A DNA stretch of 63,754 nucleotides, filler included, from Atractiella rhizophila (Eukaryota), in NCBI GenBank assembly GCA_021432655.1. It is 4 parts of 3 records of this genome, joined end to end, with 100 filler letters (N's around TTAATTAATTAA, not from the genome) between each part and the next. Parts side by side here need not be neighbours in the genome. Positions count along the whole stretch, not along the records: positions 1 to 28,665 come from MU271221.1; 3 more parts are not named here. The stretch is one strand, 5' to 3'. Shown here piece after piece: positions 15,870 through 62,576 of the stretch. Under the pieces are notes generated by a model that saw only the letters and a list, made by a program, of their open reading frames with translations, had not been told where the DNA came from and searched no databases. Position 1 is the stretch's first letter. Each line of letters starts with the position of its first letter. The position numbers were made by a program, and so were the translations under genes.

Positions 15870-16863
15870 TACGACCGAATGGAGATAATTTATATACTTT
15901 TTATTGCGTTTTACTGATTTTCTATGCTAAACTGTTGCAAGACGCGCCACCAACCCTTTCCGAGTATTCTTTCTGCACGACCGCTTAAATTTCAGTCCCT
16001 CCCTTGATCTCTAATGTTCCCAAAACCTTGCAATGCAGCCCGTCGATCGAGAGTGTCGAGGAGGGCAAAGGGATTGAAGGTTGCTGGATGCCAAATGGTT
16101 GTCCAGTGTAAGTCAGCAATGGTAAGTTCACAAATCTTTCACAGGCCTTGCACATGGAGAGTCATACACTTTGCTGTAGTCACAAACTACGTGATCGGCT
16201 GCATCTCAAGTGGCGCAAGAACGACGACAGTTCTGAGGTCCCAGTATTGGACAGGATAGGAAGGTAGCAGGGCCGGATTGAGATATTATAGCTGGGTGTA
16301 GCGTTGGCTGACTACTGGTAAGCCTTCCTTCTGGTGTTGTTGGGAGTGCGAGAACCCCTTGGGTCGTCAGGAGTCTCGCAAGGATGTGATATGTTGAGCT
16401 CAAATCCTCAATAGAGCATTCTATTTCCCGATCATATTTATCTCTAGTCAAAACGTAGTACACTAGATGTGTCCACAGTGATCTCAAACGCGTAAACTGT
16501 CTGCAAGCTTGTGGATAATATAGCGTTAGCTCTTTGGCATTTATCCTCTAATATATTGCTTGCTATTAAGCCATCTGTTTGAGAAACATTTCTGTTTCTT
16601 CAGTAATATAGTCAAAATTGACGCGAACTCCTGCTTGTCGTGGAATGAGAGACCAGTTATGAACTGTACATGTGCAGAGCAGAACACGTTATGTTATGAT
16701 CATTTGACCTGCTGTTTATGTGTTGAGCGTACCTGAGCTTTGACTCCCTTAATGTTTATATGTTCACAAGAGAGCTTTCTGGCCCTTGGCATTATGCAAT
16801 GTTTAACTTGCTTTGGCGCATGATAAATGCTAACAAAAGATCGATTGTTCCGACCAGATCACC

Positions 16864-19800
16864 ATGACTTCCACCACCTCACCAACCTCCGCTCGTCCTC
16901 CGCACAAACGCGCCATCTCCCATCCACACCTACTCAACAAACCCGCCTCTCCCATCTCCGCCGCCGACGCTCTACCGACCTACGTCTCCTTTCCACACAG
17001 CCATCACGTCCATTTTCCCGACATGGACGATCCAGACGGAGAAGCAGAAGGTGAGGGCATGACGGGAAGCATGCTTGGTTGGGTGAAGCGTATCGTTTCC
17101 GGTGGTTCGACCGTCAGCGCCGGTTCAACGTCAACAATTACTCATGGGAGAGAAGCAGGGACGAATAGCTACTTGTCATCGGTAACAGCTACAGGCAGTG
17201 GAAGCGGGAGCGCGACCCCTGCCATTTCCACGATCGGAGCGAACAGCGTCGCTGGGAGAGAGGAAGCGAGCGAAGCTGCCGAGCGATTGAAGGGACTGTT
17301 AGCTGCACGCGAACGGGGCAGCGATGGATCCCTGGCATCCATGAATCGTCCACCTCCTCCAAACCCCTCCCACCTCAAGAACCCACATCTCGCTCTCTAT
17401 CCCACCCATTCTTTCGCCTCCACACTCTCTCCAACGACCGCTCATCGGAGTGGCGTCCAAACACCCGCTATATCCTCTATTGGCATTCCTGGATTTTCGT
17501 TGAGGAGGACGGAAACCATCGATTCAGACGATGATAGACGTAGCATCAGGAGTAGCAATACTCTGGCTGGTGCAATGCAGAGCAGCATGGTGCATGCGTT
17601 CAGGAGGTTTGGAGGAGGAGCGGCTAATGAGGAGTATAAGAAGTACTGGATGGCGGACGACACTACGGATACGTGCGAGGCTTGTAAACAGCATTTTCAT
17701 ACGTTTCGGCGGAAGCATCATTGTACGTTACCCACCTCCTCCCTCCTTTCCACAGTGGTGTTTGACATGGCTGTGGGATGGACAGGTCGAGTTTGCGGTC
17801 TGATCTTCTGCTCCCAATGCGCATATCAGTTCATCCCCGGTCCTCCTCTTGGTCTCCCCGAAGCGGCAGTCCGAGTGTGCAACGACTGTTGGAGGAAGAC
17901 CTCGCACGCTCGCATCCGAGGTCGCATCTCAGCACCGATCAACAACGCCCATAACAATACCCTCACCAGCAACACTTTCTCTCCCGTCTCTCGGTCACCC
18001 TCCCCCTCTTCAACCTATTCCGATTCCGAATTCGAGGAAGAATCAGGCGATGATGATGAGGACCTCGATCCGAAGCGCGCACCGTTTAGACGGAAGAGGT
18101 TGAAGAGCACCATCGCTCCGCCGATAGATAAGGTCGTGGAGAGGATGGACTTTTTTGGACCCAGGACGCGACATAAGAAGAGGATGAGTCGGAGTCGCGC
18201 AAGGATCGATGAGGAGGAGGAAGGAGCGGATGGCGATGGCGATGCTGAAGGGAAAGGAGCGGACGTGGAGAGATTACAGAGTGGGAGGAAGAGCAGAACT
18301 GAGGCTCTCGCGACGACAACGACCAGGAAGGTGTCGGTGAATGAGGATCGAAGCGACACGCCGATTGGAGCGTTTACGGGAATGGCAAAGGTGCCGAGGA
18401 GCTTGAGGAGCCCGGTTTATGAGACTAGGGATAGAAAGGATTCGAGCGCGAATTATACTGCTATTCCCGCTGGAGAGGAGCTTACGATGCACGCCTTCGA
18501 TTATCTACGGTTAATGATTCGTCAACATCTCAATAGGCTGGAAGTGCCAGGTGTACAACAGTGGGAGGGTGAGATGATCAGGCTCCTGATCAAAGTCGCA
18601 AAGTACATTAAGTTGGATGCTCGACGAGGAGATCCAATGGATATTCGCAACTTTGTCAAGATCAAGAGGATCCCAGGAGGTCGTACACAGGATTCAGAGT
18701 ACGTTGATGGGTATATTTGCTCGAAGAATCTCTTGCACAAGCAGATGGAGAGAACTGTGCAATTCCCTAAAATTGTGCTGTGTGATCTGGGCAATGCATC
18801 CCGAGAGGAGCCAGAGGAGGAAAAGGCGAAGAAGGGAGGTTTTGAGTACCTCAATGATGTGAGGAGGCAAGAGGACATCAGAGTTCGAGCCTTGAATTCA
18901 CTGGGCGATCGTGGTGCTGACGTTCTTCTCTTCTCTTTTCGAGTCCCTCGACAAGTCCTCGAGCATCTCAGCAAGAAGGGTGTTTCGGTAGCTCACGATG
19001 TCAAATATCGAACAATGGAAGCCGTCGAACGAATCACCCGAGCGAGTATAGTCACCGTTCCTGAATTAGAGGCATACATTGTGAAAATGGACGAATGGGA
19101 GACTAAAGAGACGAAAGAGAAGGAGAAGAAGGAGAGGGAAAAGGAGGACACGAAAAGGAGCGGACTTTTCTCCCTTCTCAAGTCGAAGGAGAAGGAAGAA
19201 TCTCCCGCCCCACCTCCTATCACTTTTGGCGAGTGCACCACCTTCCGCCTGCACACCTACGTCCACACCTTCATCCCTGAGCGACGAAAAACGATCATGC
19301 GTTTCGAAGGCTGCCCAAAGGACCTAGGATGCTCGCTTCTCCTTCGAGGAGGGACACTAGAGAACCTGGGAAAGGTGAAGCGAACGCTTGACATGATGGT
19401 CCAGCTTGTCTACAGCCTTAAGCTTGAATGTCACCTGTTAAAAGAGGAGGGTGCCGGACCAGTTTGGCCGCTCAGGTTCGATCGAGGAGTCTCTGAAAAT
19501 GCGGAGACCACCTTCTCAAAAGAGAAGAGAAATATCGCTTTTGAGACATTGGAACGGGATCGGCATGGATTCGAGCGGGCAAGGCTGAGTCGGAGGATTC
19601 AAGATAGCTTGAGGCCGTATACTGAGGTTTATTTGAGCGGAAGTCCAAGTGTCAGGTTTCAACCTCCCTATCCCCTAGCTATCATGGAGAGGTTGGATAG
19701 AGAGGTGAACCTTCTTCGACGACGCTGGGCTGAGAAGGAAGCGGAATTAGCGAAGAGACGGGCTCAGATGGCCGATGACGATGACGAGAAGGAGAAGCTG

Positions 19801-22800
19801 CCCACTGAGATCGAGGTCGATCCGGAGAAGGCACTTGAGAAGATGGAGCAACAGTATGATGGGAAGATGGCTCAAAAGGAGAAGGACAAGATGGAGGACA
19901 AGAAATATCAGACTCTGGACAGCGTCAGTGGCATAGGCACCCTTATTGCCCAGAGATTGTCGATTTCGGATCGTTTCTTTGGCTCTCAGAACCCTAGCCC
20001 GTCGACTGAACCTGTCGATGCAGGCACACGCCAGGCCAAGTTCGACGAAAAATTCAACCAAGTTCTTGTTAAATCTGAGGATTTGTTTCTACTGGCCCAG
20101 TTGCAAGAGATGGAAGTTCGACATACCGAACGTCTCAGAGCTTGGGAGAACTACTTGATCCTAAACCAAGATAAGTTCACTCCTGAAGACCATCAAAACA
20201 TCTGCCTTCTCCAGAGTACGGTCTCCGTCGAAACAAAGCAACCTTGTCGTGGACCGCTTCTCGAGCAAATATCGTTCTACAACTTACACGACTTCACGGT
20301 GGGACAAGTTATAGAGAGTCGCTTCAATGACTTCAACCAGATCTGTACAGCACAAAAGTGTGGAAAGCCAAACCACAAGCATTACCACACTTGGGTCCAT
20401 GGAGACGTCAAGCTGATGATGGAATACGAAAGGAAGCTTCCGAAGGAGTTAGAAGACAAGTTTCAGCAGATGGGAGAAGACATCCAGATGGCCAGTACCT
20501 GCAAGCGCTGCAACTCAGGTCCTCGCTGGAGCTATGTGTCGCAAGAGACATGGAGATACAGCTTCGGAAAATTCCTACAGACTTGCTTTTACCCTGACAA
20601 TCTCGTCACCAATGGGGTTGAGGGATGCCAGCATAATCCAGTTTTAGACTATGAGCGAAGGTTCGTAAAGGAGAAGAAATGCTGCCTAGTTTTCACTGCA
20701 GAAAAGGGTGAGCTGTCTCAGGAACTTGGAGTTTTAGCTGATCGTGAATAGTTCAACTCGCCGACATCGTTGTACCTCCGCTCCAGGTTCGAACCTCCCC
20801 TTCCCGTCAACTTCAACTTCGCAATGAAGAGTACAAGTCACTCTACAGCCACAACGCTGCCTTTTGGGATTCGGTCCTTACTCGTATCCACACCTTCAGC
20901 CATGAGAGCGTTGCTGCTGAACTTCGGGAAGCCAGTCGAGCCGCGCTTTCGGACATCGAGAGAGCAGTAGCGTTAGATAGAGCAGAAATAATCAAATTGG
21001 CTGATGACGTTTATCGTCGCTGCACAGGCAATGGAATGGAGCTGAACTCTGTCTGGAAAATTCTCCACGTGAAGGCGTCTGACTTTAACCAACGTTTCGA
21101 GGAATTCCGACATCAGTTCTTCCCGTCCATTCTTTCTCATAAAGAATTCTCAAAGTTGACGAGTCAACAGTTCAGAAGGTTATACCCATCATTCGAGGAA
21201 TTCCGACATCAGTTCTTCCCGTCCATTCTTTCTCATAAAGAATTCTCAAAGTTGACGAGTCAACAGTTCAGAAGGTTATACCCATCTGTAGCTGACCGTT
21301 CTGCACGCTCAATATTTGGATCATTCGGAACTGAAGCATCGGGGAACACTCCCAGCGGGCTCCTTTCACCTGCCTCGGACTTCTCAGGATCAGAATCACC
21401 GTCACCAATGCCATTCTCGCTCAATCAGCTAACAGAGCTGGACGAAAAGATTGACAAAGAGCTTCACTCCCAAGTTCGGCGTGGCTCTGAATCAAGCGTT
21501 CAAAGCGACTCCGCTGCTTCCGAAGAAGTCAGTGTCGATACAGCACACTCGACTCTGAAAACGGGTTCGGTTCCACCTATCATTGAAACTGAAGAAGACA
21601 ATGGAAATGAGAGTGATTCGACAGCTCGTGGAGTGGACCATCCTAGCTCTTCCGCCGCGGAAGGATTCCCACTATCCGACGATAGCGACTCTCCTGAATC
21701 TACTCGAGCTAAAATACTGCGAACAAACGCTGTAGCTGCGCTGGTGAGAAAGTTTGATCCTCTTTCCGACGGCCCTGGAAGCCCTCCCATTTCTGGCATT
21801 CCGAGACCCAGTCGAAATCTCAAAATGAGCGATTCAGAATCGGAGGCGCGCCGCCCTCGACTGCCTCATAGCCGAACTGGAAGCAAGTTGCCCCGACCAA
21901 AGATCAACGAGAGCAATGAGATGATTTCAGAGGGAGAGGACACTCCTCGAAGAATCGGCAGTCCCTCAAATAAGTCTCGGTTTACATCCAGACCTTTAAA
22001 TCCACCAGACGTTGTTGCACAGTCACCATCTCTTCCTTCCGCCCGGCACACAAACACCAAGACTCGTTCTTCACGGTTTGGCAAACCCCACACCCCCAGT
22101 TCTCAACTATTCGGGTCTTTTACTAAGGACAGATCGCGCAGACGGACCAATGGGGATGATCGCGCTTCGGATGCCGAGCCTCTCCCTTTGAAAGGCACAA
22201 CCCGCCAAAATAAACCTTCAACATCGAAGGATGGGCTGAAGGCTAGCGAAAAGAAGTACAAAGGTCCGTTCTCGTTCGGAGGAAATGTATCTAGCATGGC
22301 CCGCAAGTGGGAACAATACGGACGTGCTCATCAAGCAAGATTCGACAACCGTCAAAAAGCGAGGCCATTGGTCAATCCAACAGTATCGGTTCACAATTTC
22401 GCCAACGCCAGAGCCGCTGTAAACGACTCCGATGATGAGGAAACGAAACCACCTAATGCAGAGCCTGATGATGGCTCCGAAGGTGACAACGAAGATGACA
22501 ACGAATCTCCCAGTAACAGTCGTGACAAACTGTCTGAACCTTCTGGTGTCGATCCTGAGCCGTTTCCGCCTGCACCGTCACCCCCTCTCCTTACTTCCGA
22601 ACCGCCCCCAATCACCCCAACTGAGACGCAGTCATCCTCCCTCCCTTCACCAGCCATATCTCAGACAGAAGAGCCTCCGTCACCTGTGTCCTATCATCGG
22701 CCGTCCACAGATTACGGACCATCGCCTGCACTGTCACCGCTTGTGCACAAGTCGTCTTATTTTTCGGACACGGAGAGCAATGCTGGAGGATCTGAAAGAG

Positions 22801-23942
22801 GCTCTATTCTGAAGACATTGACAAGCTTCTTCCCTTATCGTCACCCCGACTTCGCACCTATCAACTGGCCGCTGAGCAACACGGAGCACGTCTTCAAGGA
22901 CAATCAGGTTATTGTTAGGGAGGATGAGCCTTCCTCCATTGCAGCTTTCGCTCTGAGGTGAGCAGCATCTATGGTTGAAGATTCGAGCTGATGCGTGGGA
23001 AAGCTCCGAGAAATATTCCCACAATCTTGCTCAGCACAGGCGTTCAGACAATAACATAAAGTTAGGAAAGGGCAAAAGTGAAGTGTTCATGCCTGACGAT
23101 GGCGACGAGGCGAACAGCTCTCGAGCATCGACATGGGAGTACGTAGAAGCAGAAGCAAGCGCAGCAGTCAACGACTTAGAAGCGCGCCTATGCAGTCCTC
23201 GTGATTGTACTTTCCAACTGGGTGAGTGCCCACCTCCGATGGCCCCGTAATATAGTTTAATAAATGTCTAGACTTTGTCACCGATGACTTCAGTGACGAG
23301 AGGACAAAGGAGAAAACCAAGTTTCTTGCTATCTGCTTCTTTGCGGACCAGTTCGAAGCGCTCCGGCAAGTCTGCAAGTGCAACGACAACTTTGTAGAGA
23401 GCCTGTCGCGTTGTTCAAAATGGAACACTACTGGGGGTAAATCAGGGAGCGCCTTTTTCAAGACAATGGACGACAGGTTCATCATCAAAGAACTATCCAA
23501 AGCGGAGATGAAAAGTTTTGCGGACTTTGCACCGAGATATTTCCAGTACATGGCTAGAGCTCACTTCAGAGAGGTTCGTGTTGTCTCCTGGATTCAAAAA
23601 ACAATACTCAAAAGAAATGCAGAAAATTCCTACGCTTCTGGCCAAGATTTTTGGCGTTTACAAGATACACTTACGAAATCCGGCCACCAATCGGACAATT
23701 AAACTCAATATACTGGTGATGGAGAACCTACACTTTGACCGTACAATAACCAAGGTCGGTCTAATATCCTCTAAAACCTGCGTAGTCTCACGGTATCACA
23801 GAAATTCGACCTCAAAGGCTCAGTTCGCAACCGCCATGTTCAACTCAGTTCTGACAAGGGCAATCATGTCCTTTTAGATGAGAACTTGATCGAAATAGCG
23901 CATAAGGATCCACTCTTCGTTCGGGAGTTCTCCAAACGCCAT
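16864..23942 (+). CDS. FAB1: PI3P 5-kinase Fab1/PIKfyve; 3' end lies in the mirror-reversed block
   Basis: FYVE (YWMADD, RRKHHC-R across intron 17723-17785, RVC), TCP-1-like domain (VKIKRIPGG), Cys/His-rich region, kinase N-part ([34 protein letters not shown]); the normal frame loses homology after SKRH. Confidence 0.96.
21096..21286 (+). repeat. Exact tandem duplication, period 96 bp, in frame within FAB1
   Basis: 21096-21190 is identical to 21192-21286; [32 protein letters not shown] appears twice. Confidence 0.95.
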
Positions 23943-25206
23943 GGCGGTTGTCGCTTAGCTATCGTTTCTAGCTGTCCAGAGAGAACCAGGAACATGACCT
24001 AGTCCTGGCTGGCTGCTGAGCTCTCCTTCAGAGAACCCCCAACACCCATCCTCTACCTTTCTTAGCTACCAAGCTGTTTGTGGTCACATTGATCAAAGGG
24101 TATGGAAGGAAGTGGGGAGCGACTTCGAAGTATGTCACTAACAGAAACTGTTGCCAGCGTGACCGAAGTTGCCTCTTGTGAGGTACGAGCTACCCTGTGG
24201 GTGTAGGGCAGAGTTGCTGAAGGATGAAGCAAGGTAGCGGCGCGCGTGGGAAGGTAACCCTCTGAGCGCGGCGAGGAACGGAGGAGGGTGGTTTGAGGTT
24301 ACCCTAGAGTCGGCGCGCAGGGTTCTTGTGTAACCGTTTCGTCTTTCGCTGAAGTGTCGAGACTACCCGTTCGTAGTTGAGAGCCATGACCTGATGCGGC
24401 CCATACCTTTTGGGCTTTAGTTCAGCACCTTCTGTAGTGGACTAAGCACCCGAGTCTACCACTACGTCGACCGTATAACCTTCGAATCACGAGTGTTCTT
24501 CCGCTTTCGAAACCGCAACCGACCCTTCCTCCAGCCTCTCCCTCTCCTTCAGCCTCTCGAGCGACCTTGCATGCTCTCGACAGTCTGGGCAGCTAAGTTT
24601 GCTCCTGCGTGTCTCCAGTAAGCATGTCGGCCGTAACTTCAAGCTCTTACCACATTGTCGTACAGTCTACCTTTATAGAGGTCGCACTTCTCTGACCTTG
24701 AGAAGGCCTTCCGAAGACGACGAGTATAAGCGATGCGACCAACCCGTCGCCTCCCTGTCCCTCATCTGTCCGTAAACAAGCCACGCTGAAACGCTGAAGA
24801 TTTACCTCTAAAGAGATTGCGATTCGTCCGAATTTCGACAACGAGTTCCTCCTGCTCTTCTACGGTCTGTAAATGTGTCTAGGGAAGAAACTCTTCAGAT
24901 TCTTCACCCAGAACAGCTGTTCAGTCGAATCGAGACTTAAAAAGCTCCCTACCCCAATACCTCTTCCATACGCGGACTACGAAGACTCCTCTAGCGGTAC
25001 GAATGGAACCGGATCAACAACTTCTGCCTATACCCAACCGCATAAGACACTTGCTAGCGTCAGAAGCGAAATGTTAGTGTTGTTACTTACCCCTACGTCT
25101 CCAGGAGTCTCCTAAAAACCTCCTTAGCACGTCTCTCTGCTCTCGCTACCAGCTCCTTCGCTACTTCCTCCTCCGACGCAGGTTCCTTGTCGTTCGATTC
25201 GAGATC
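23943..25206. CDS. CAT2: 3' half of carnitine O-acetyltransferase, readable only as plain complement left to right (minus strand once the block is re-oriented)
   Basis: Complement reads ANSESIAKIDRSLLVLVLD...NRWFDKHQ/LIVFDNGRTGFNGEHSMLDGTPT...SPDSWAQMVMQLAY...GTYESCQTRRFKRGRTEVIR...GQGVDRHLF/G...LSTSQL...EQQAKL-stop, with three GT-AG introns. Confidence 0.95.
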
Positions 25207-25548
25207 TGTGTCCGCACATCTATTACAACGAGATACTTCTTCTATTACGGTAGTAAACACGCCTCACACCAGAAGAAGCAGGACGGACAGTCTTTACTTC
25301 TATGTAATCCCATTTACGAAACAACTTATGTTAACTAGATCGTGTTTGTTGTCCTCTGTTGACCGTCTTTTATGTGTTTATGCCGTTCCTTGAAATGTAG
25401 CATCTGAAGAACCTGTCTAGACAACCAACGTCCTCCCTTAGGCACCTTGGTCGTTACCTCGGTCAAAGTCAGAAGGGGCCGAGAGCTGAATGTAGGCCAA
25501 CGCGGATGTAGGACTTACAGTTACTGTACCACTGGTCCTCTTCTTTAA

Positions 25549-25980
25549 AGTTTGGGAGTACTAATCGGTAAGAAGTAGCTTCATGCGAAGTGGGAGCAGA
25601 GGACGAGGAGCGAAAGGGAGGTACCGTTCTTAGCGTAAGTTCGAGAAGCCGACCTAGGTGAATAGTCCCTGGATGACTTCCCCAGTTGAAAGGAGTTCGA
25701 CACGCATCCCATCTGCTTGGTATTACTTTATAGCGAGGTAGCGTAGGGACTTAGATAACGCTATGACTTATCCTCAGTGTTAGCAACCAAGAAAAGCCGA
25801 CTTGTTACGTCAGAGAAACTGGGTTCTGAGTTGGACAAACAGTTCGCATATGCAAGCGTCTTTCAGCTATTGCGGTTGCTGCTCGAGGACGGCAAGCGAC
25901 AGTTCCGGCTGCTACTCGCTTATCAGGTACTATAACAATAATCTATCCTTTTCCCTTAGTAACTTATTTCGCCACGCATC
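25549..25980. CDS. FAB1: 3' end of FAB1 kinase domain, readable only right to left without complementing (plus strand once re-oriented)
   Basis: Reverse-only from 25980: [55 protein letters not shown]...EPTIVTPIQYRNRFRDAMERYFIM/VPDKW...LIMRV-stop (TGA at 25551-25549). Confidence 0.95.
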
Positions 25981-26375
25981 NNNNNNNNNNNNNNNNNNNN
26001 NNNNNNNNNNNNNNNNNNNNNNNNNNNNNNNNNNNNNNNNNNNNNNNNNNNNNNNNNNNNNNNNNNNNNNNNNNNNNNNNNNNNNNNNNNNNNNNNNNNN
26101 NNNNNNNNNNNNNNNNNNNNNNNNNNNNNNNNNNNNNNNNNNNNNNNNNNNNNNNNNNNNNNNNNNNNNNNNNNNNNNNNNNNNNNNNNNNNNNNNNNNN
26201 NNNNNNNNNNNNNNNNNNNNNNNNNNNNNNNNNNNNNNNNNNNNNNNNNNNNNNNNNNNNNNNNNNNNNNNNNNNNNNNNNNNNNNNNNNNNNNNNNNNN
26301 NNNNNNNNNNNNNNNNNNNNNNNNNNNNNNNNNNNNNNNNNNNNNNNNNNNNNNNNNNNNNNNNNNNNNNNNNNN
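25981..26375. other. Assembly gap (395 N) that should contain the middle of CAT2
   Basis: Run of N; once the block is re-oriented it is flanked by CAT ...ETLAPEAV and ANSESI... Confidence 0.9.
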
Positions 26376-26573
26376 CCGACAGCTTCAGGGGCGAGGGTCT
26401 CGGTCACTACGAGTTTTCGGAATGCGAGGATCCCGCGGGTGAGGAGAGCTGCACGAAGGGTTGGGGAGGGGGGGGTGTGAGGGACTGGGGCGTGGGAATA
26501 GAAGTAGTTCACCCAGGGTACTAGTGGGTCACGAGGTTGGAGGTATGCGTAGTAGTTCCACCAATCAGCCAGC
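26376..26573 (-). CDS. CAT2: Carnitine acetyltransferase internal exon (partial, runs into gap)
   Basis: ctgac...tag acceptor, then LADWWNYYAYLQPRDPLVPWVNYFYSH (carnitine acyltransferase WW..AYL..RDP motif). Confidence 0.9.
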
Positions 26574-27432
26574 CTACGCCGTTCAATGTCAGTTACCTGA
26601 TATACGACATCCAGAGACATGTGATGTGTCACGTCCAAATTGCATGAAATTGTTCGCAAATACATGACAGACTCTTCAGAGGGAAGACAGCAATGATAGC
26701 AATATTTCTCATTCACTTGATCTTATTCCCATGCTCCTCTTAACGCCAGATGAATAAAATAAATGTTCAACTTTGCGCAATATTGTGATTTGCTCAAGAA
26801 GATAAGAGGTATCATCGTCTCCCTTCTATCCACAAATCACCTTCAAGGCAAGACCACTCGTTAAGGAGCAGTAAGTGCAGCGTGGAAGAGAAAGGAGAAA
26901 GCAAAAGAAGACATGGGAGGATGGAAAGCATGAAGGTTACTCCCGTCTGTTCCGTTCTCACTGCACAAGCTGGGGAGGAGAGAAGTTATCACAAACAAAT
27001 CAACAACCGTCCTCAATCTCCTGTTTGACGTGGAGAACAAAATGATTGGACTGTTCCGTATTAACTCCTTCTACAAAGGCGATATAGATAAACCGTCTCT
27101 TTGGTTTATTCCACTCTACTCTCGAGAAGAAATACTGAAACATTAATGATAAGCTCTAAGGCACTTCTTTCTGTCCCTAAGATATTATAGGCGTGCTTTA
27201 ATGAGCTGCTGCCTGAAAATTAAATAAATGAAGTATTCGTTACGATAATGCAATTCACAGGAATCATCCTTTAATTCTTCCTCGCTGTTTGTTGAGGAGC
27301 ATGAACTGGGATACTGGCTGACCATACCCCCTGAGCTACTTGCCAAAAAAAAATGCAGAGTAATAGCAACCACCCCACTTTTGCCTTTTCCCCACCACCA
27401 AACTTCAACTCTACCAAATAGAAGAAACCTAC

Positions 27433-27648
27433 CAGTTACCCTTCGACTCCGGATCCCTCGCTCTCTCCTCCAACCTCTCCTGGAGTGTCCTAACAAGGGG
27501 ACTCTCCTTAAACTCCTTCACAGCCTCTCTACTCCTCCTTTCCTCCTCCTTCGTCTTCCAAAACGCCTTCAAACTATCCAAATACCTCTCCGCCGTCTGC
27601 TCGATGCTCGGCACCGGCAGAGGAGGCAACGAGGCGTCAGAAGCGAGT
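27433..27648 (-). CDS. CAT2: Carnitine acetyltransferase N-terminal exon, copy A (partial)
   Basis: SLPPLPVPSIEQTAERYLDSL...RARDPESKGNW then gtaggt donor; phase fits the exon starting at 26573. Confidence 0.85.
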
Positions 27649-28665: not shown

Positions 28666-28765
28666 NNNNNNNNNNNNNNNNNNNNNNNNNNNNNNNNNNN
28701 NNNNNNNNNTTAATTAATTAANNNNNNNNNNNNNNNNNNNNNNNNNNNNNNNNNNNNNNNNNNNN
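28666..28765. other. Artificial 100-nt contig spacer (44 N + TTAATTAATTAA + 44 N)
   Basis: The same structure occurs three times; the 12-mer puts stops in all six frames. Confidence 0.97.
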
Positions 28766-33519: not shown

Positions 33520-34799
33520 AACCCTAGGGAAGCTCCAGCAGTCGTTGCGTCATCCCTTCATACCACAACGGTCCAGTTATTCGGACCGTCAGGGGAACTC
33601 TGCTTTACAGTAGGTTGAGTAGAGCGGACGAGGAAAGGAGTTCCTCAAGAGAGGAGCTTGGAAATGTGAGGGTATATTCCTCCGTTAGTCTCGTTTTGGT
33701 ACCACCACCATCTCGATATTGAGCTGGATATCGAGCTCATTTATTCACGGTTCCCTAACGTTGAATTTACACTCAGGTGGCGAATAGGATGAATGGACAT
33801 GGCTAGCCATGGAACAGGCTTCTTTTCCCCTTGTTCTTCTCAGAGCATGGCTGAAGTAGCAGTCCGATTATCGCTTTCTTCAGATCTAATATTCCTAACG
33901 AAACGAAACTGCCTATAAGTCGCTTCTAGTGAACTCAAAGGATCATGGTCTAAATGACTACGAGCAACGAATAGACTAAACATTGACATTCCTATTCGTA
34001 ATTCGTACAGCGAACATTATGCGAGGTATGAAATAACTCATGACCCTACTCTTCTCTGCCAAATGCATGAAAAGGGCATAAATTATATAAATATGTCTAC
34101 AACTGAATGTGTGGTTTATAAGGCTTGGATTTTTAAGCATGCGGCCAGAATAATTCCGAACTGAAGAAGAGCACGAGGTAGATATGACTCGGTGTCATGA
34201 ATTGCCCATGGATTTATCTAGACCCTAGTTTGCTGTTGAATCTTCAAGTTGGGAGAGGGATAAAAGGCGTTTGTGTAGATCGTAGGAAGGAAGGGCCAAG
34301 GGAAGCAGTTTGCTGAGCTTGATGAAGCAGGAGGGAAATCGGCTCATGATTTAGCATTCGAAGATGGTTTGATAGGCTTGCCAAGTCCCTGCCCACTGTG
34401 GGGAGGTGATTATCGCCCTTGCAACTCCAGCTGGAAATCTGCTGAGATAGTGGGCACATTTGGCAAACATTCAAAGCAGGGAATGATTATGGCACTGAAA
34501 ATCCTGTAGAGAATATGTAAACTCTTGGCATCATTGCAAATGCGGGCTCCTGGTGACACTTAGTTGATTTTCGAGTGTCGCGACTGCTCAATCCCGCTCT
34601 GCAAATCGCGGATGAGAAGAAGCTGGACTCTCCGCGCCCTCACTTAACCAAGCAAAAGCTTACCTTTGATTTTCGAGCGCTTTTCCATACCGTGGTGATC
34701 TCAACCTACCATCCGAGTCCAAGTTATAAAATGGATGTTGTTTGTCTACTGCTTATGCTCCTGGTTTTATTTTAAAGACCTAAAGGTGATCCTGCGACT

Positions 34800-36894
34800 A
34801 TGGCTACGACTTTTATCCTCCTTGCTGATCCGCAGATTAACAAGGCTCCCGAGCCTGAGCGATACGAGACGTGCGGTAACCTCAATGTTGCGCTCAATAA
34901 CTTCAAACAGAATAATGCCGTGTACCCTTCCATTAAAGGGATCAACTGTGCCGGACAGCCTATTGCTCCCATCGCTGCAACTTTCATCGCCGGAGACCTG
35001 ACTCAGTTCGGAGGGAACTTGAATAGGGGAGAACAAGCGGATTTGACGAAAGGTCCTGCGACGTATGTCGGGGGCGAGTTTGTACGTTGCTCCTCATTCT
35101 TCAGAATTTATCGTCGTGCAGGGGAGGTACTGATGCACTCAAATGTTCGATAGTTGAGAAGACTCAGAGCACTTTACTGCCCTGGAGCAGGCAAAACCGG
35201 CAGTGACAAGCAGGTCGAGAAGTTGATAGACACAGGTCCAATCTACTTTGGGTTGGGGAATCATGGTACGTCACCCCGTTTCAGCTCACCTAATTTGTCA
35301 GACTAACCAGCAATCGTTACAGACCTGGAAGGCGCAGCTGGGGAAGGACCACCTGGTTGGAGATTCTCAAACGGCGCGTATTCCACACCAAATAACCATT
35401 TCAGGTGAGGATAAACCTTTCACATTTCCTATATGACGCGCTAAACGTGGTACGACATGGTAATACAGGTATCAGATGTGGAATTTTATCAATCAGATGC
35501 ATGGGTACGTCTAATCTTGTATTCAGCCACAGAACTCAGTACCCTCTAGCTCTCCAAAAGCACCCTTCAAGATCCCTGCACTGTACAAGGGCGGATGGGA
35601 CGAGACGGGACGGCACCTTCAGATGGATTGCCCTCTGGAGGGATCATACGAATGGCAAAAGTATTCAATGAACTACGTTGTGAATTTAGGGCCAGGCGAG
35701 TCTTATCCTTTCCCTAACTCCACATTCACCTGAAAGTTTGAACAGTTGACGTCTATCAAGTCGGTATTTCTTTCCCTGTTGTTATTTTGGTCTGAACAAT
35801 CTACAGCTCCATGTCTTCGGTGGTGACCCGCGACATGGGAGAAACGATGGATTGGAATGGCTGAAGAGGACGCTTGCGATCAAAGGCTATTCTCGACCAG
35901 TCATAATTGTCCAACACGACCTTCCATCCGAGACGCAAGATCAGTGGGTCGATGAAGAAGCTACAGTTCACGAGACGAATCATCTCATGGAAGTTCTCCT
36001 TCCTTACAATGTGATTGCCTTTCTAGTCGGGCACAATCACGATCAGGGTCCGTGCCCCCGTTGGCTTGAATTCCCTAATCAGATGAACACCTTCCCTCGC
36101 GATGCTCCGAAGAAGAAGTGCCCCGAATTCCGCCCCGGTTGTGCTTTCGATCAACATTTCGGACTGTTCAGGATTACGAAGCAAGCAGGGATTGATGGTA
36201 TGTACGATTTGAACGTGCTTTACGGAACGGCGAAAAATCAAGCACCTTTCCTTGTTTGGAATATTGGGTACACTCACACATTCTCTCGAAAGCCAACCGT
36301 ATGGGTAGCGGGTATCAGCGTCTGTTCACAACCTGACTAGTTCTGCCATAGCTCAATTAGTCATAGATCGTCCTCACTCCTGATGAAAAGCATACGAATC
36401 CTAACGTTACTCATACGGTCACCGAACTGAGTGGACAAAGCGCTGACATCAATGATGGTTTCGGAGGCAGGTTCGTATTCTGCTCCGTTCTATCACTTCG
36501 ATCACTCTCACACGCTTGATAGCTTCGTATGGGTTCATCCGATTTTGACGACAGATCGATCGCAAGCCATAACCGGCATCAAGCTCCACATCCTCAAAGC
36601 GGAAATCAGCGGCTGGGGAGAAAATGTCGGACAGGGAAGGGGGAGTGGAGGGTACGATATTCGCGTTCCATATCCCGTTGCTCACCTTGGAGCAGATATA
36701 ACTATCGGTACCTCGAGACCGTTCGTGAAGAAGGAAAACCACCAATCACTGGACTCTCGTTCTTGAGAAGCGATAAAGCGGCTAGTTGTCCTCCTCATTT
36801 CAAGGATTATACGGGAGATATCAATGACAAGAGAGGAGGGTCTTTCCTGTATCTTTGTTGGAGGACTTGGGACGAGTGGACTCTCGACGACTGA
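34800..36894 (+). CDS. Calcineurin-like metallophosphoesterase fused to a C-terminal MABP-like beta-prism
   Basis: Motifs LADPQ, IAGDLT, GLGNH-D, IIVQH, VGHNH; C-terminal three-fold repeat including ADINDGFGGSFVWV / AITGIKL / PITGLSF...GDINDKRGGSFLYLCW. Confidence 0.8.
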
Positions 36895-55500: not shown

Positions 55501-55883
55501 TCTAACTTCTTCCTTCAGTGCAGAAAGGTGATTGTGTGATATAGATCAAAATATCGCGTTTAAAGCGGTAAATCAGTCTATAGGTGCGTTTTTCCCATCT
55601 TATATGGAGGAGGTATGAATTCACAAAGACAAATAGGACGTGCAATTCGTAAGCGTGGCATATCTCGCTTGACTTGACTGCTGATGGAAGATGATTTTCA
55701 GGCCACGCAAACGATTGGGCATCAATCATCCTGATCGATGAACGGTATAGCTCGAAAGCAGTAAAGTCTAAGCTGCCGGGATGGCTCGGGGGACAGTCCA
55801 TCAAGACGTGCGAGTCGTTTGGCGAGCTTGTTCGAGACTTGGCTGGATTCTTGAAGGAACGTCGACGGACATCGAATTCTTAA
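52514..55883 (+). CDS. CHL1: Fe-S DEAH DNA helicase Chl1/DDX11
   Basis: FPFTPYEIQ, ESPTGTGKSLSLL, SRTHSQLSQ, VVIDEAHNL, LAGGTMHP, VVVFFPSY, VVGAKLSEGINFSDDLAR, NQSI-GRAIR-HAND. Confidence 0.95.
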
Positions 55884-56147
55884 CTGCTTTCTTTGTATAC
55901 CTTTCCTTTATTCCATATTCTTGTTTAGTGATGATGCCATATTGATATTTCTTGTTCACGGAATCTTGCTCAACCATTTGCTGCGTAAGCGACAATTGCT
56001 TGGCTCAATTAACATTCGGTGAATTATCCGACAGTCGGGTGTCTGCGCCGATGACAAATACGTGCATACATCCATTCATCAACGTTTTCACGGTTCCCCT
56101 AAATATAATCTCCACATCGACCTGGCCTCATTCCCCAGGTCAGCAGC

Positions 56148-59100
56148 ATGCCTCCGCCCGACCGTCCCCATACGCCACTATCAGCCTCGTCGCGGAACTC
56201 TTCGCCGTCGCTCCTCAAGCTGACGCTGCCGCTGCCCCGCCCTTTTCATCCGAAACAGAGCTCTGTGTTCAGCACGAGCAGCGCCATCTCCCGGGGGAGC
56301 ATACGCAGTGGGCGGAGCGGGAGGGAGGTGTGGGAGACGCCGACGGAGGAGAGGGAGAATATGTTCGATGAGCTCCCGCTCGAGGAGAGTGTGTCGTTCG
56401 ATGTGCCTGTGCCTCCTGAGAGCCAAACAAGCACGTCACAGTCTCAGGTGTGTATTCTTGTTGTAATTTTAGTTCAGACTATGTGGATGGTCTATTTGTG
56501 TAGGATGGATGTTGACGGTGTGATGTGATAGGAGACACACAAGGACGGTTTGGGTTTGATCAACATTAATGGTGTTCATCCACCGTCGCTGAAGGAAAAA
56601 GAAGACGAAGATGTCACAGCAAAGCACGCACCAGCTCCTTCCCTCCCTCTCCCTCTTTTACAACACGCGAAAGACACAACAACGTCCACCTCCACGTCCC
56701 TACAAGCAACTCGAGGCAACATCACGCACGAACCGCTCTCCGCCGAACCCGAAGCTCTATCTTCCTCGTCCCTTGCAACGCCTTCCCTCTCCCACCCGCG
56801 CTCGCACACAGTAGGGGGAGGATCAACGAGCCTCTCCCAGCTCGCAGCTTCGCTCCAGCCGCACGCCCACTCCCAACACGCCCACTTCGACGATCCATCC
56901 TCCCCCTCCCCCTCTCACTCCCGCCCGCATCCCCACATCTCCCACTCAGATCCGCACCACCGACTCCATCCCGCCGCCCAACGCCATCCAGACCCTTCCA
57001 CCTCCACCGCCCACTCGCACTCTCACTTCCCAACCCACTCCCACCAACACTCGCCGTCCGGCCAAATCCTCGGCGGCGTGTGTCCCTCCACCGCCATAGC
57101 ACGCACCTTCATAGGTCCTCACATCGTCCGTCTGCGGTCAAACAATCCCAATAATAACCTAGCGTCGACACTGAGCGGCGGGTTCTCTCAGGGAAGCTCG
57201 CAGGGAAACTCGGGAAGTTCGCGGCCTGGCTTACATAATAGGTTCACGAGCGACGTGCCGTCCATTGGTGGTGGTGGACATGCGGGGAGGGAGGTTAGTG
57301 GATTTGAGGAGTGGGAAGATATGGGGGCTAGCTTCACTGCTGCTGTTAATGGGCCTGCTGTTGGAACGGGAGGGCTTGGGGGGACGTTGGGTTTGGGCGG
57401 ATTCGGCGGTGGGGGTGGAGCGGGACAGGGGAGGAGGAGGAAGAGAGCGATGTGGGAGGGTGTGAGTTATGAGATTGGAGGGAGGGAGAGGGAGTGGGAG
57501 AGGTTCGAGGTGGAGAAGATGGAGAGAGAGAGATTGTTGAGGTGAGTGGATTTGTTGAGAGATTTAGGATTTGGATTGTTTCTTCTTTTTGAGCAGAAGA
57601 GAGAGGACGCGAAATAAGGAAGCGTTGTGGTGCTTCTGCTCTGTTGTCTATCTATCTCATAATTAGCAGCGAAAGGTTGCCTTTGTGCTCTATACGACAA
57701 TAGGGGCGTTACACCAATTCACATTCAAGCCGCCAGCCTTTTCGCCTCGTTATGGACCCAGAGATAGTTTTGCCTTGCCCTTAATAAAACAAGGGGTAGT
57801 TGGGACATCGGGAAAGCCTTGTGTGGGGAGGGAGGTGCAAATTGATTAATTTTGTGACTGATTCTTTACGTCAGTATGTGCGTTAGGAGGGGAGAATATA
57901 TTTCAATTTTCACCCCGTGTTGTGCTACTGCTGTGCAAAGAGGCGGAAACCACAAGCAGCGAAACCGTCGATAAGATTTACACTGTTGCGTTTGCTGACA
58001 TTAGAACCTTACAGCTCACACTCGTATTCCTTGAATGTTACCCATCCATCTCGCGTCGGTTCCTCCCACTCACATTCTCACTCGAACCAACCAGTCAACC
58101 TCCAAGCTTCGAACTCGACCGGCGCGACAACGCACCTATCCCACCTCTCCCATCACTCCGGTATGGCACTCCTATCCGACTCTTCGTCTACCTCGTCTCC
58201 GATCAAGACCCGCAAATCCTACCATTCTCCTCGGCTCCCCAGCACGAATTCGATCCTCTCTCGGTTTCGGAGCAGCTCGACTTCTCGTGAGAGGGAGAGG
58301 GAGAGGGAGAGTAGAGGGAAAGGAAAGGAAAGGTCGATGGATGGGGAGCCATCCGTCTATTATACTCCAGGAGACTTTAGCCTCGCCTCTCCTCCTGCTT
58401 TGTTGGAGAACGAGTATCCCGACCGCATACACGAGCTGTTGAGGACTAAAAGCGATAAGCCTTCGGCCACTGCTTCTGAAACGGAAGTGGAGCTTGATCG
58501 GCCGCACCAGGAGACAGGGGATGATGGGAAGGCTTTGAGTATCGCAGAGGGGGAGAAGTTTGAGCCGACTCGGAATAGTCTGCCTTCTCGGAGCGCCCTT
58601 AGGAAGATGAACATCGCTGGGCGGAATGAGGAGAAACTTAAGATCGTGCAGTTCGTGCACACCGAGCCTCCGAAGAAGGATAGAGGAAGGGAGAGGTCGG
58701 GAAGCGGAAGTAATACCGGAGCTTCTTCGAGTCGGGCTGGACAGCAGAGAACGTCGTGGTCCAAATTTGTAGTCAGTGGAGATCAGCCGCCGGCCAGTCC
58801 TGAACAAGTGTTGGCGAGGAGTACGGAGCAGGAGTTGATGGATTTCGTGCAACCTGATCCCGTTGAGAGGAGGAGAGTGGCGACTGAGAAGAATAGGCAG
58901 AGGATGATTATGCACGATCGAATGCTCGTCAAAGTCGAATGGACGATTCAGTCCCTCCCTCCAGGTTATAATGAGACCATAGCCTTGGGTATCAAAAAGG
59001 ACACCGAGCCTTGGGAGGAGTTTGCAGTCGTGTGGAAGAGGGGAAAGATCGAGTTATGGGTCGATTATAAGATCCCACTCAGGGAGTCATTTTCGGGTCA

Positions 59101-59643: not shown

Positions 59644-59743
59644 NNNNNNNNNNNNNNNNNNNNNNNNNNNNNNNNNNNNNNNNNNNNTTAATTAATTAAN
59701 NNNNNNNNNNNNNNNNNNNNNNNNNNNNNNNNNNNNNNNNNNN
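59644..59743. other. Artificial 100-nt contig spacer
   Basis: 44 N + TTAATTAATTAA + 44 N. Confidence 0.97.
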
Positions 59744-62476: not shown

Positions 62477-62576
62477 NNNNNNNNNNNNNNNNNNNNNNNN
62501 NNNNNNNNNNNNNNNNNNNNTTAATTAATTAANNNNNNNNNNNNNNNNNNNNNNNNNNNNNNNNNNNNNNNNNNNN
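62477..62576. other. Artificial 100-nt contig spacer
   Basis: 44 N + TTAATTAATTAA + 44 N. Confidence 0.97.

Follow-up and report, generated by a model that had tools for sequence, protein, structure and literature searches.

The final 2038 nt of contig sequence ahead of a scaffold gap in the window, the 63,754-nt stretch of Atractiella rhizophila DNA analysed here, are written in reversed letter order without having been complemented. The block occupies positions 23943..25980, and the gap of 395 N that follows it (25981..26375) is the sole long N-run and the only scaffold gap in the window. The block is almost certainly an artefact (probability about 0.97 or more), with assembly, scaffolding or the closing of gaps as the probable stage of the reversal error. 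The true locus is composed of two ordinary convergent genes, one for a FAB1/PIKfyve-type 1-phosphatidylinositol-3-phosphate 5-kinase (FAB1) that runs rightwards, and one for a peroxisomal-type carnitine O-acetyltransferase (CAT) that runs leftwards from the gap. As written, the two genes run into the block from either side and are truncated there. Apart from the reversed letter order the block is correct, its content, location and length being as they should be, and both genes are intact.

The correctly written part of FAB1 extends over 16834..23942 on the + strand, as defined by a Pfam scan and spliced contigs. The open reading frame at 16834-20748 predicts a FYVE finger (E 8.4e-11) and a Cpn60_TCP1-like domain (E 4.4e-16), and the next, at 20748-22958, has no family match in the Pfam scan. 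The kinase domain begins in the exon at 23256-23564, which matches positions 11-54 of the 288-position PIP5K profile (E 2e-11), and continues in the exon at 23802-23942, which matches positions 95-131 of 288 with an E-value of 0.0098 that is, taken alone, below the cut-off. FAB1/PIKfyve-type kinases have the domains FYVE, Cpn60_TCP1 and PIP5K in this same succession. The nearest full-length relatives, judged by identity over the N-terminal open reading frame, are from Phenoliferia (36%) and Microbotryum (30%), both Microbotryomycetes, followed by Tremellomycetes, which points to a probable Pucciniomycotina-like basidiomycete without close relatives among the proteins searched. No protein predicted from this same assembly was among the FAB1 relatives found, the closest being the 36% identical protein from Phenoliferia. 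Translation of the exon at 23802-23942 terminates in REFSKRH at 23942, the point after which the initial annotation had reported homology to be lost, and the frame as written indeed meets a stop 19 codons further on.

The rest of FAB1 is found when the block is reversed as a string. Homologues were fetched with the correctly written part of the gene and comprise a set of 5 proteins and a further 28 long ones; the two references checked by Pfam both include FYVE, Cpn60_TCP1 and PIP5K. In tblastn searches, 5 of 5 and 27 of 28 (32 of 33 overall) match the reversed block starting at its first letter (38-61% identity, E-values of 1e-14 to 5e-35), and the one protein that finds no match (P0124) has no PIP5K domain on record. 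Against both strands of the block as written, the best E-values of the same queries are 2.4 (5 queries) and 0.014 (28 queries). A profile of the FAB1 tail aligns to the reversed frames over positions 307-406 of 416 (E 3.5e-47). In the corrected order, the kinase domain continues from the first reversed letter in a 261-nt exon that is in frame with the codon ending at 23942 and corresponds to the + strand letters read from 25980 back to 25720 (25720..25980). This exon is followed by a predicted in-frame intron of 48 nt (25672..25719), with GT..AG ends when read backwards, which falls in the size class of the RNA-supported FAB1 introns (46-50 nt). The last exon (25549..25671, also read backwards) starts with VPDKW and terminates in a stop codon at 25551-25549, 432 nt beyond 23942 in the corrected order, and several homologues align through it, with P0102, for example, reaching reversed position 405. 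The complete FAB1/PIKfyve set of a FYVE finger, a chaperonin-like domain and a full PIP5K domain is thereby obtained, with the remaining part of PIP5K and the tail present only in the reversed block. The tblastn and profile matches bear out the earlier proposal that the reversed string would supply an in-frame FAB1 tail, a GT-AG intron and a short terminal exon from VPDKW to the stop.

The position of the left breakpoint was determined by comparing, for each FAB1 reference, the end of the alignment to the left flank with the start of the alignment to the reversed block. In 23 of 27 references the left alignment falls one codon short of 23942 and that to the reversed block resumes two residues later; in the remaining 4 it falls two codons short of 23942 and the next resumes three residues later. 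No residue is lost or gained across 23942|23943 in any of the 27 homologues. As the reference numbering is continuous, and as alignments of contigs from public sequencing runs (below) stop at 23942, the breakpoint lies between 23942 and 23943; the accuracy of about 3 nt claimed for it previously was conservative.

The 3′ two thirds of the CAT gene are also carried by the block, and are read from the plain complement of the written letters, left to right (23945..25206). A script assertion established that this complement is the same as the reverse complement of the reversed string. An exhaustive HMMER search yielded 96 representatives, of which 17 with lengths of 550-700 aa were used, and three of these references, checked by Pfam, contain a full-length Carn_acyltransf domain. 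A 115-aa exon, used in a word-index search, retrieved no full-length relatives of CAT. All 17 full-length references match the opposite strand of the reversed string in tblastn (E 1.6e-28 to 3e-66), the alignment covering reference residues ~260-617 and the block supplying about 370 residues of CAT, and the best E-value of these 17 queries against both strands of the block as written is 0.13. A CAT profile matches the reversed string over positions 262-606 of 609 in three frames that succeed one another as expected. Among 126 stop-free models with GT..AG introns, the one with the highest score has exons at 23945-24086, 24137-24781, 24829-24966 and 25016-25206, separated by GT..AG introns at 24087-24136 (50 nt), 24782-24828 (47 nt) and 24967-25015 (49 nt), all in the plain complement. 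The EHSMLDG motif, an instance of the E-H-x-x-x-D-G motif in which the histidine is catalytic, is located at 24175-24195 in the complement reading, and the stop codon is at 25204-25206. The predicted protein terminates in AKL, a peroxisomal targeting signal. The initial annotation had described a CAT reading of the plain complement with three GT-AG introns and a C-terminal AKL, and the model agrees with it, the introns being 47-50 nt long and thus similar in size to those of FAB1 with RNA support. All 10 of the peptide motifs that it quoted are present at the expected places in the translation of the reversed string, and the PIP5K tail and Carn_acyltransf homology that it expected there were found, both being absent from the block as written.

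The remainder of CAT lies beyond the gap and is written correctly on the minus strand. An exon at 26378..26617 is placed by tblastn with residues 80-158 of P0007, and, tested over 26378-26722, gave a match to positions 61-126 of the 574-position Carn_acyltransf profile (E 1.3e-11, Pfam). A further upstream exon, near 27441-27599 on the same strand, corresponds to P0007 residues 26-77 (tblastn). Reference residues 26-158 and ~260-617 are thus covered, with the middle ~100 lying in the 395-N gap. The absent residues, ~159-259, number 101 and need about 303 nt together with one or two introns of ~50 nt, which matches the size of the gap, and the gap should therefore hold them. When the block is flipped end to end, the part of CAT that starts at about residue 260 adjoins the gap, opposite the exon at 26378-26617, and the two genes are convergent, an arrangement that had been anticipated. 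Their stop codons are separated by 342 nt.

Contigs from one of the public runs (X3, described below) join 26572 to 27432 on the minus strand and skip 859 nt with GT..AG ends, and in X3 a depth of thousands gives way to one of 16-91 from about 26675 to 27342. CAT may thus have a long 5′ intron, the other introns seen here being 46-50 nt long. The shorter side of the joint is only 28 letters and the skip would delete about 15 reference-aligned residues, so that its exact ends are doubtful.

An inversion of the ordinary kind, or a contig placed in the wrong orientation, would have left the block as a reverse complement, and real inversions are reverse complements. The site does adjoin a scaffold gap, a setting in which orientation errors are frequent. 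However, a reverse complement would keep its homology on the other strand, and none was found, as neither strand of the block as written gives a match below E 0.014 with 33 FAB1 and 17 CAT queries. This explanation is refuted, and is the least credible of those considered.

Stop-free frames in the block reach at most 111 aa as written versus 247 aa when reversed. Profiles built from the fetched homologues were run on the reversed frames, with ten other stretches of the window, likewise reversed, as controls, and neither the CAT nor the FAB1-tail profile matched anything in the 6 frames of the block as written or in the 60 reversed control frames. The direction of the k-mers was assessed using a strand-symmetric order-4 Markov model, trained on the rest of the window, that compares written and reversed versions of 500-nt windows; being strand-symmetric, it also detects blocks that are complemented only. 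Outside the block the direction score has a mean of +9.96 and a standard deviation of 5.96 (245 windows), and the 6 windows inside it score -12.2 to -19.0, about 4 standard deviations off. The 8 lowest of the 251 windows are exactly those that overlap the block. By this test there is no second reversed block of at least 500 nt in the window. A comparison of longest open reading frames in 1.5-kb windows flagged two other segments, 55501-57000 (156 vs 192 aa) and 33751-35250 (125 vs 150 aa), neither of which is supported by the direction test.

Public sequencing runs provide a further view of the joint. The highest word-index shares with 20000-25980 are 0.54 (X1), 0.53 (X2, from the same sample as X1) and 0.46 (X3), and no indexed run exceeds 0.54 of the sampled words, the correctly written part making up 0.66 of this segment. 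Small word shares with 20000-25980, seen in runs X4 and X6-X18 and in root and soil metatranscriptomes, carry no weight either way. Runs X1, X2, X3 and X5 were aligned over 22500-27500, and the evidence they give consists of contigs, not reads, with 30 letters of each loose end visible. Depth is 0 in every bin of 24003-26340 in all 4 runs, so the written order has no support there, and contigs of X1-X3 cover both flanks of the block. Alignments of contigs from X1, X2 and X3 stop at 23942, and the contigs run on for 131, 255 and 255 letters or more. The 30-letter consensus of these loose ends is identical in the three runs and identical, at 30 of 30 letters, to the start of the reversed block. 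Where the initial annotation had looked to sequence data on the block as written, spanning 23942/23943, as the observation that would speak against an artefact, the opposite is seen, the contigs following the reversed order. On the other side, contigs enter the gap from 26376 for 132 letters (X1 and X2) or 54 letters (X3), and real sequence must therefore exist there. In FAB1, four introns with GT..AG ends and lengths of 46-50 nt, all located from 22955 to 23800, are spliced out of X3 contigs, and three of the same four are missing from X5 contigs. X3 behaves like RNA, and transcription and splicing of FAB1 reach the joint and continue past it.

Contigs of X5 end at 23913 with a 23-letter loose end, which in our judgement resembles a sequencing adapter, and X5 is for this reason uninformative on the joint at 23942. 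In each of X1, X2 and X3, two contig versions occur at 23309-23432 and at 27309-27434, one nearly identical to the window and the other with 4-9 differences from it and 3 nt deleted at 27392, a pattern suggestive of mixed strains or of two haplotypes, as in a dikaryon or diploid.

The runs show full-depth differences from the window at 23187, 23522, 23626 and 23640, and may represent another strain or haplotype rather than the source reads of the assembly. X1-X3 are independent evidence for the true order of the species at the joint. For the other ~2000 letters of the block, the reversed order is indicated by protein homology and k-mer statistics. Taken together, the E-values, the identity at 30 of 30 letters and the k-mer direction test exclude chance, and homology, contigs and k-mer direction all support the earlier view of the block as a string error in which sequence was reversed without being complemented.

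The same differences bear on the idea that the block exists in the organism as written, as a true mirror copy that destroyed two genes, since the case against it draws on runs with a few fixed differences that may not be the source reads. Nevertheless, the contigs of three runs of the same species follow the normal order at the joint, with the written order absent from all of them, and FAB1 is transcribed and spliced up to and past the joint in X3. Both genes can also be read in the reversed block with frames and splice sites intact, which is not expected of dead, drifting sequence. To our knowledge, no replication, recombination or repair process reverses the order of bases without exchanging strands. 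A mirror copy is accordingly extremely improbable.

Given that the block is an artefact, the question is at which step it was made. The window has visibly been processed, as it contains three 100-nt spacers, each composed of 44 N, TTAATTAATTAA and 44 N, at 28666-28765, 59644-59743 and 62477-62576. These mark artificial joins, so the window consists of at least four separate pieces placed end to end, and genes are not to be read across them. The core, TTAATTAATTAA, provides stops in all six frames, and spacers of this type are described as a device for concatenating contigs into pseudomolecules. A reversal made after deposition, whether as an in-silico edit, a planted decoy or control, or a slip during concatenation, would fit a sequence handled in this way, and reversal without complementing is a standard device for making decoys (bioRxiv 10.64898/2026.04.14.718546). 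However, the direction test found no reversed stretch beside any of the three spacer joins, and the length of 2038 nt and a left breakpoint in the middle of an exon look undesigned. The block also ends exactly at the edge of the sized gap, and the gap length fits the absent part of CAT, which a random edit would rarely achieve. A later edit is therefore unlikely, if still the most serious competitor. From the coincidence of the block end with the gap edge, and from the fit of the gap length to the missing CAT segment, we infer that the error probably belongs to the assembly stage.

An error at the assembly stage could have arisen in one of two ways. A contig end may have been extended into the gap letter by letter, with the new letters kept in the order of their discovery. 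Had such an extension then been joined on unflipped, its first letter, the true neighbour of the contig, would come to lie beside the gap, as is seen here. Alternatively, a script that orients a piece by reversing it, instead of reverse-complementing it, would give the same result. The full-text literature searched, a limited collection, yielded no account of an assembler or gap closer making such errors, and the descriptions found of reversed, non-complemented sequence concern deliberate uses only (synthetic constructs and decoys). A systematic software bug that has left similar reversed blocks by other gaps, here and elsewhere, is far likelier than mirror DNA. If there is such a bug, gene models would be silently truncated, and if the tool is widely used, other public assemblies may be affected.

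FAB1 is an essential lipid kinase, and the error strips any annotation of its catalytic end, together with two thirds of CAT. Standard checks are blind to a block of this kind, as it has a normal base composition and gives no BLAST match on either strand. The k-mer direction score could be used on contig ends beside gaps to find further cases. In the corrected order, the FAB1 (PF01363, PF00118, PF01504) and CAT (PF00755) genes of this locus are ordinary members of their families with nothing unusual, and the block holds no biological novelty; its value is as a quality-control flag for the assembly.

Two known situations resemble the block in part. Decoy DNA, produced by reversing sequence without complementing it and used to calibrate false-discovery rates (bioRxiv 10.64898/2026.04.14.718546), is the product of the same string operation, and in both cases composition is kept, homology is lost and the direction of the k-mers is flipped. 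Decoys, however, are purposeful and are kept apart, whereas the block is part of a scaffold, where it has its proper position and length and is flanked by correct sequence on one side and a gap on the other. In this it is like a mis-oriented contig on the side of a gap, since both are found at a contig end by a sized gap, with content and position right. The genes of a mis-oriented contig can be detected on the other strand, but those of the block have homology on neither strand as written.
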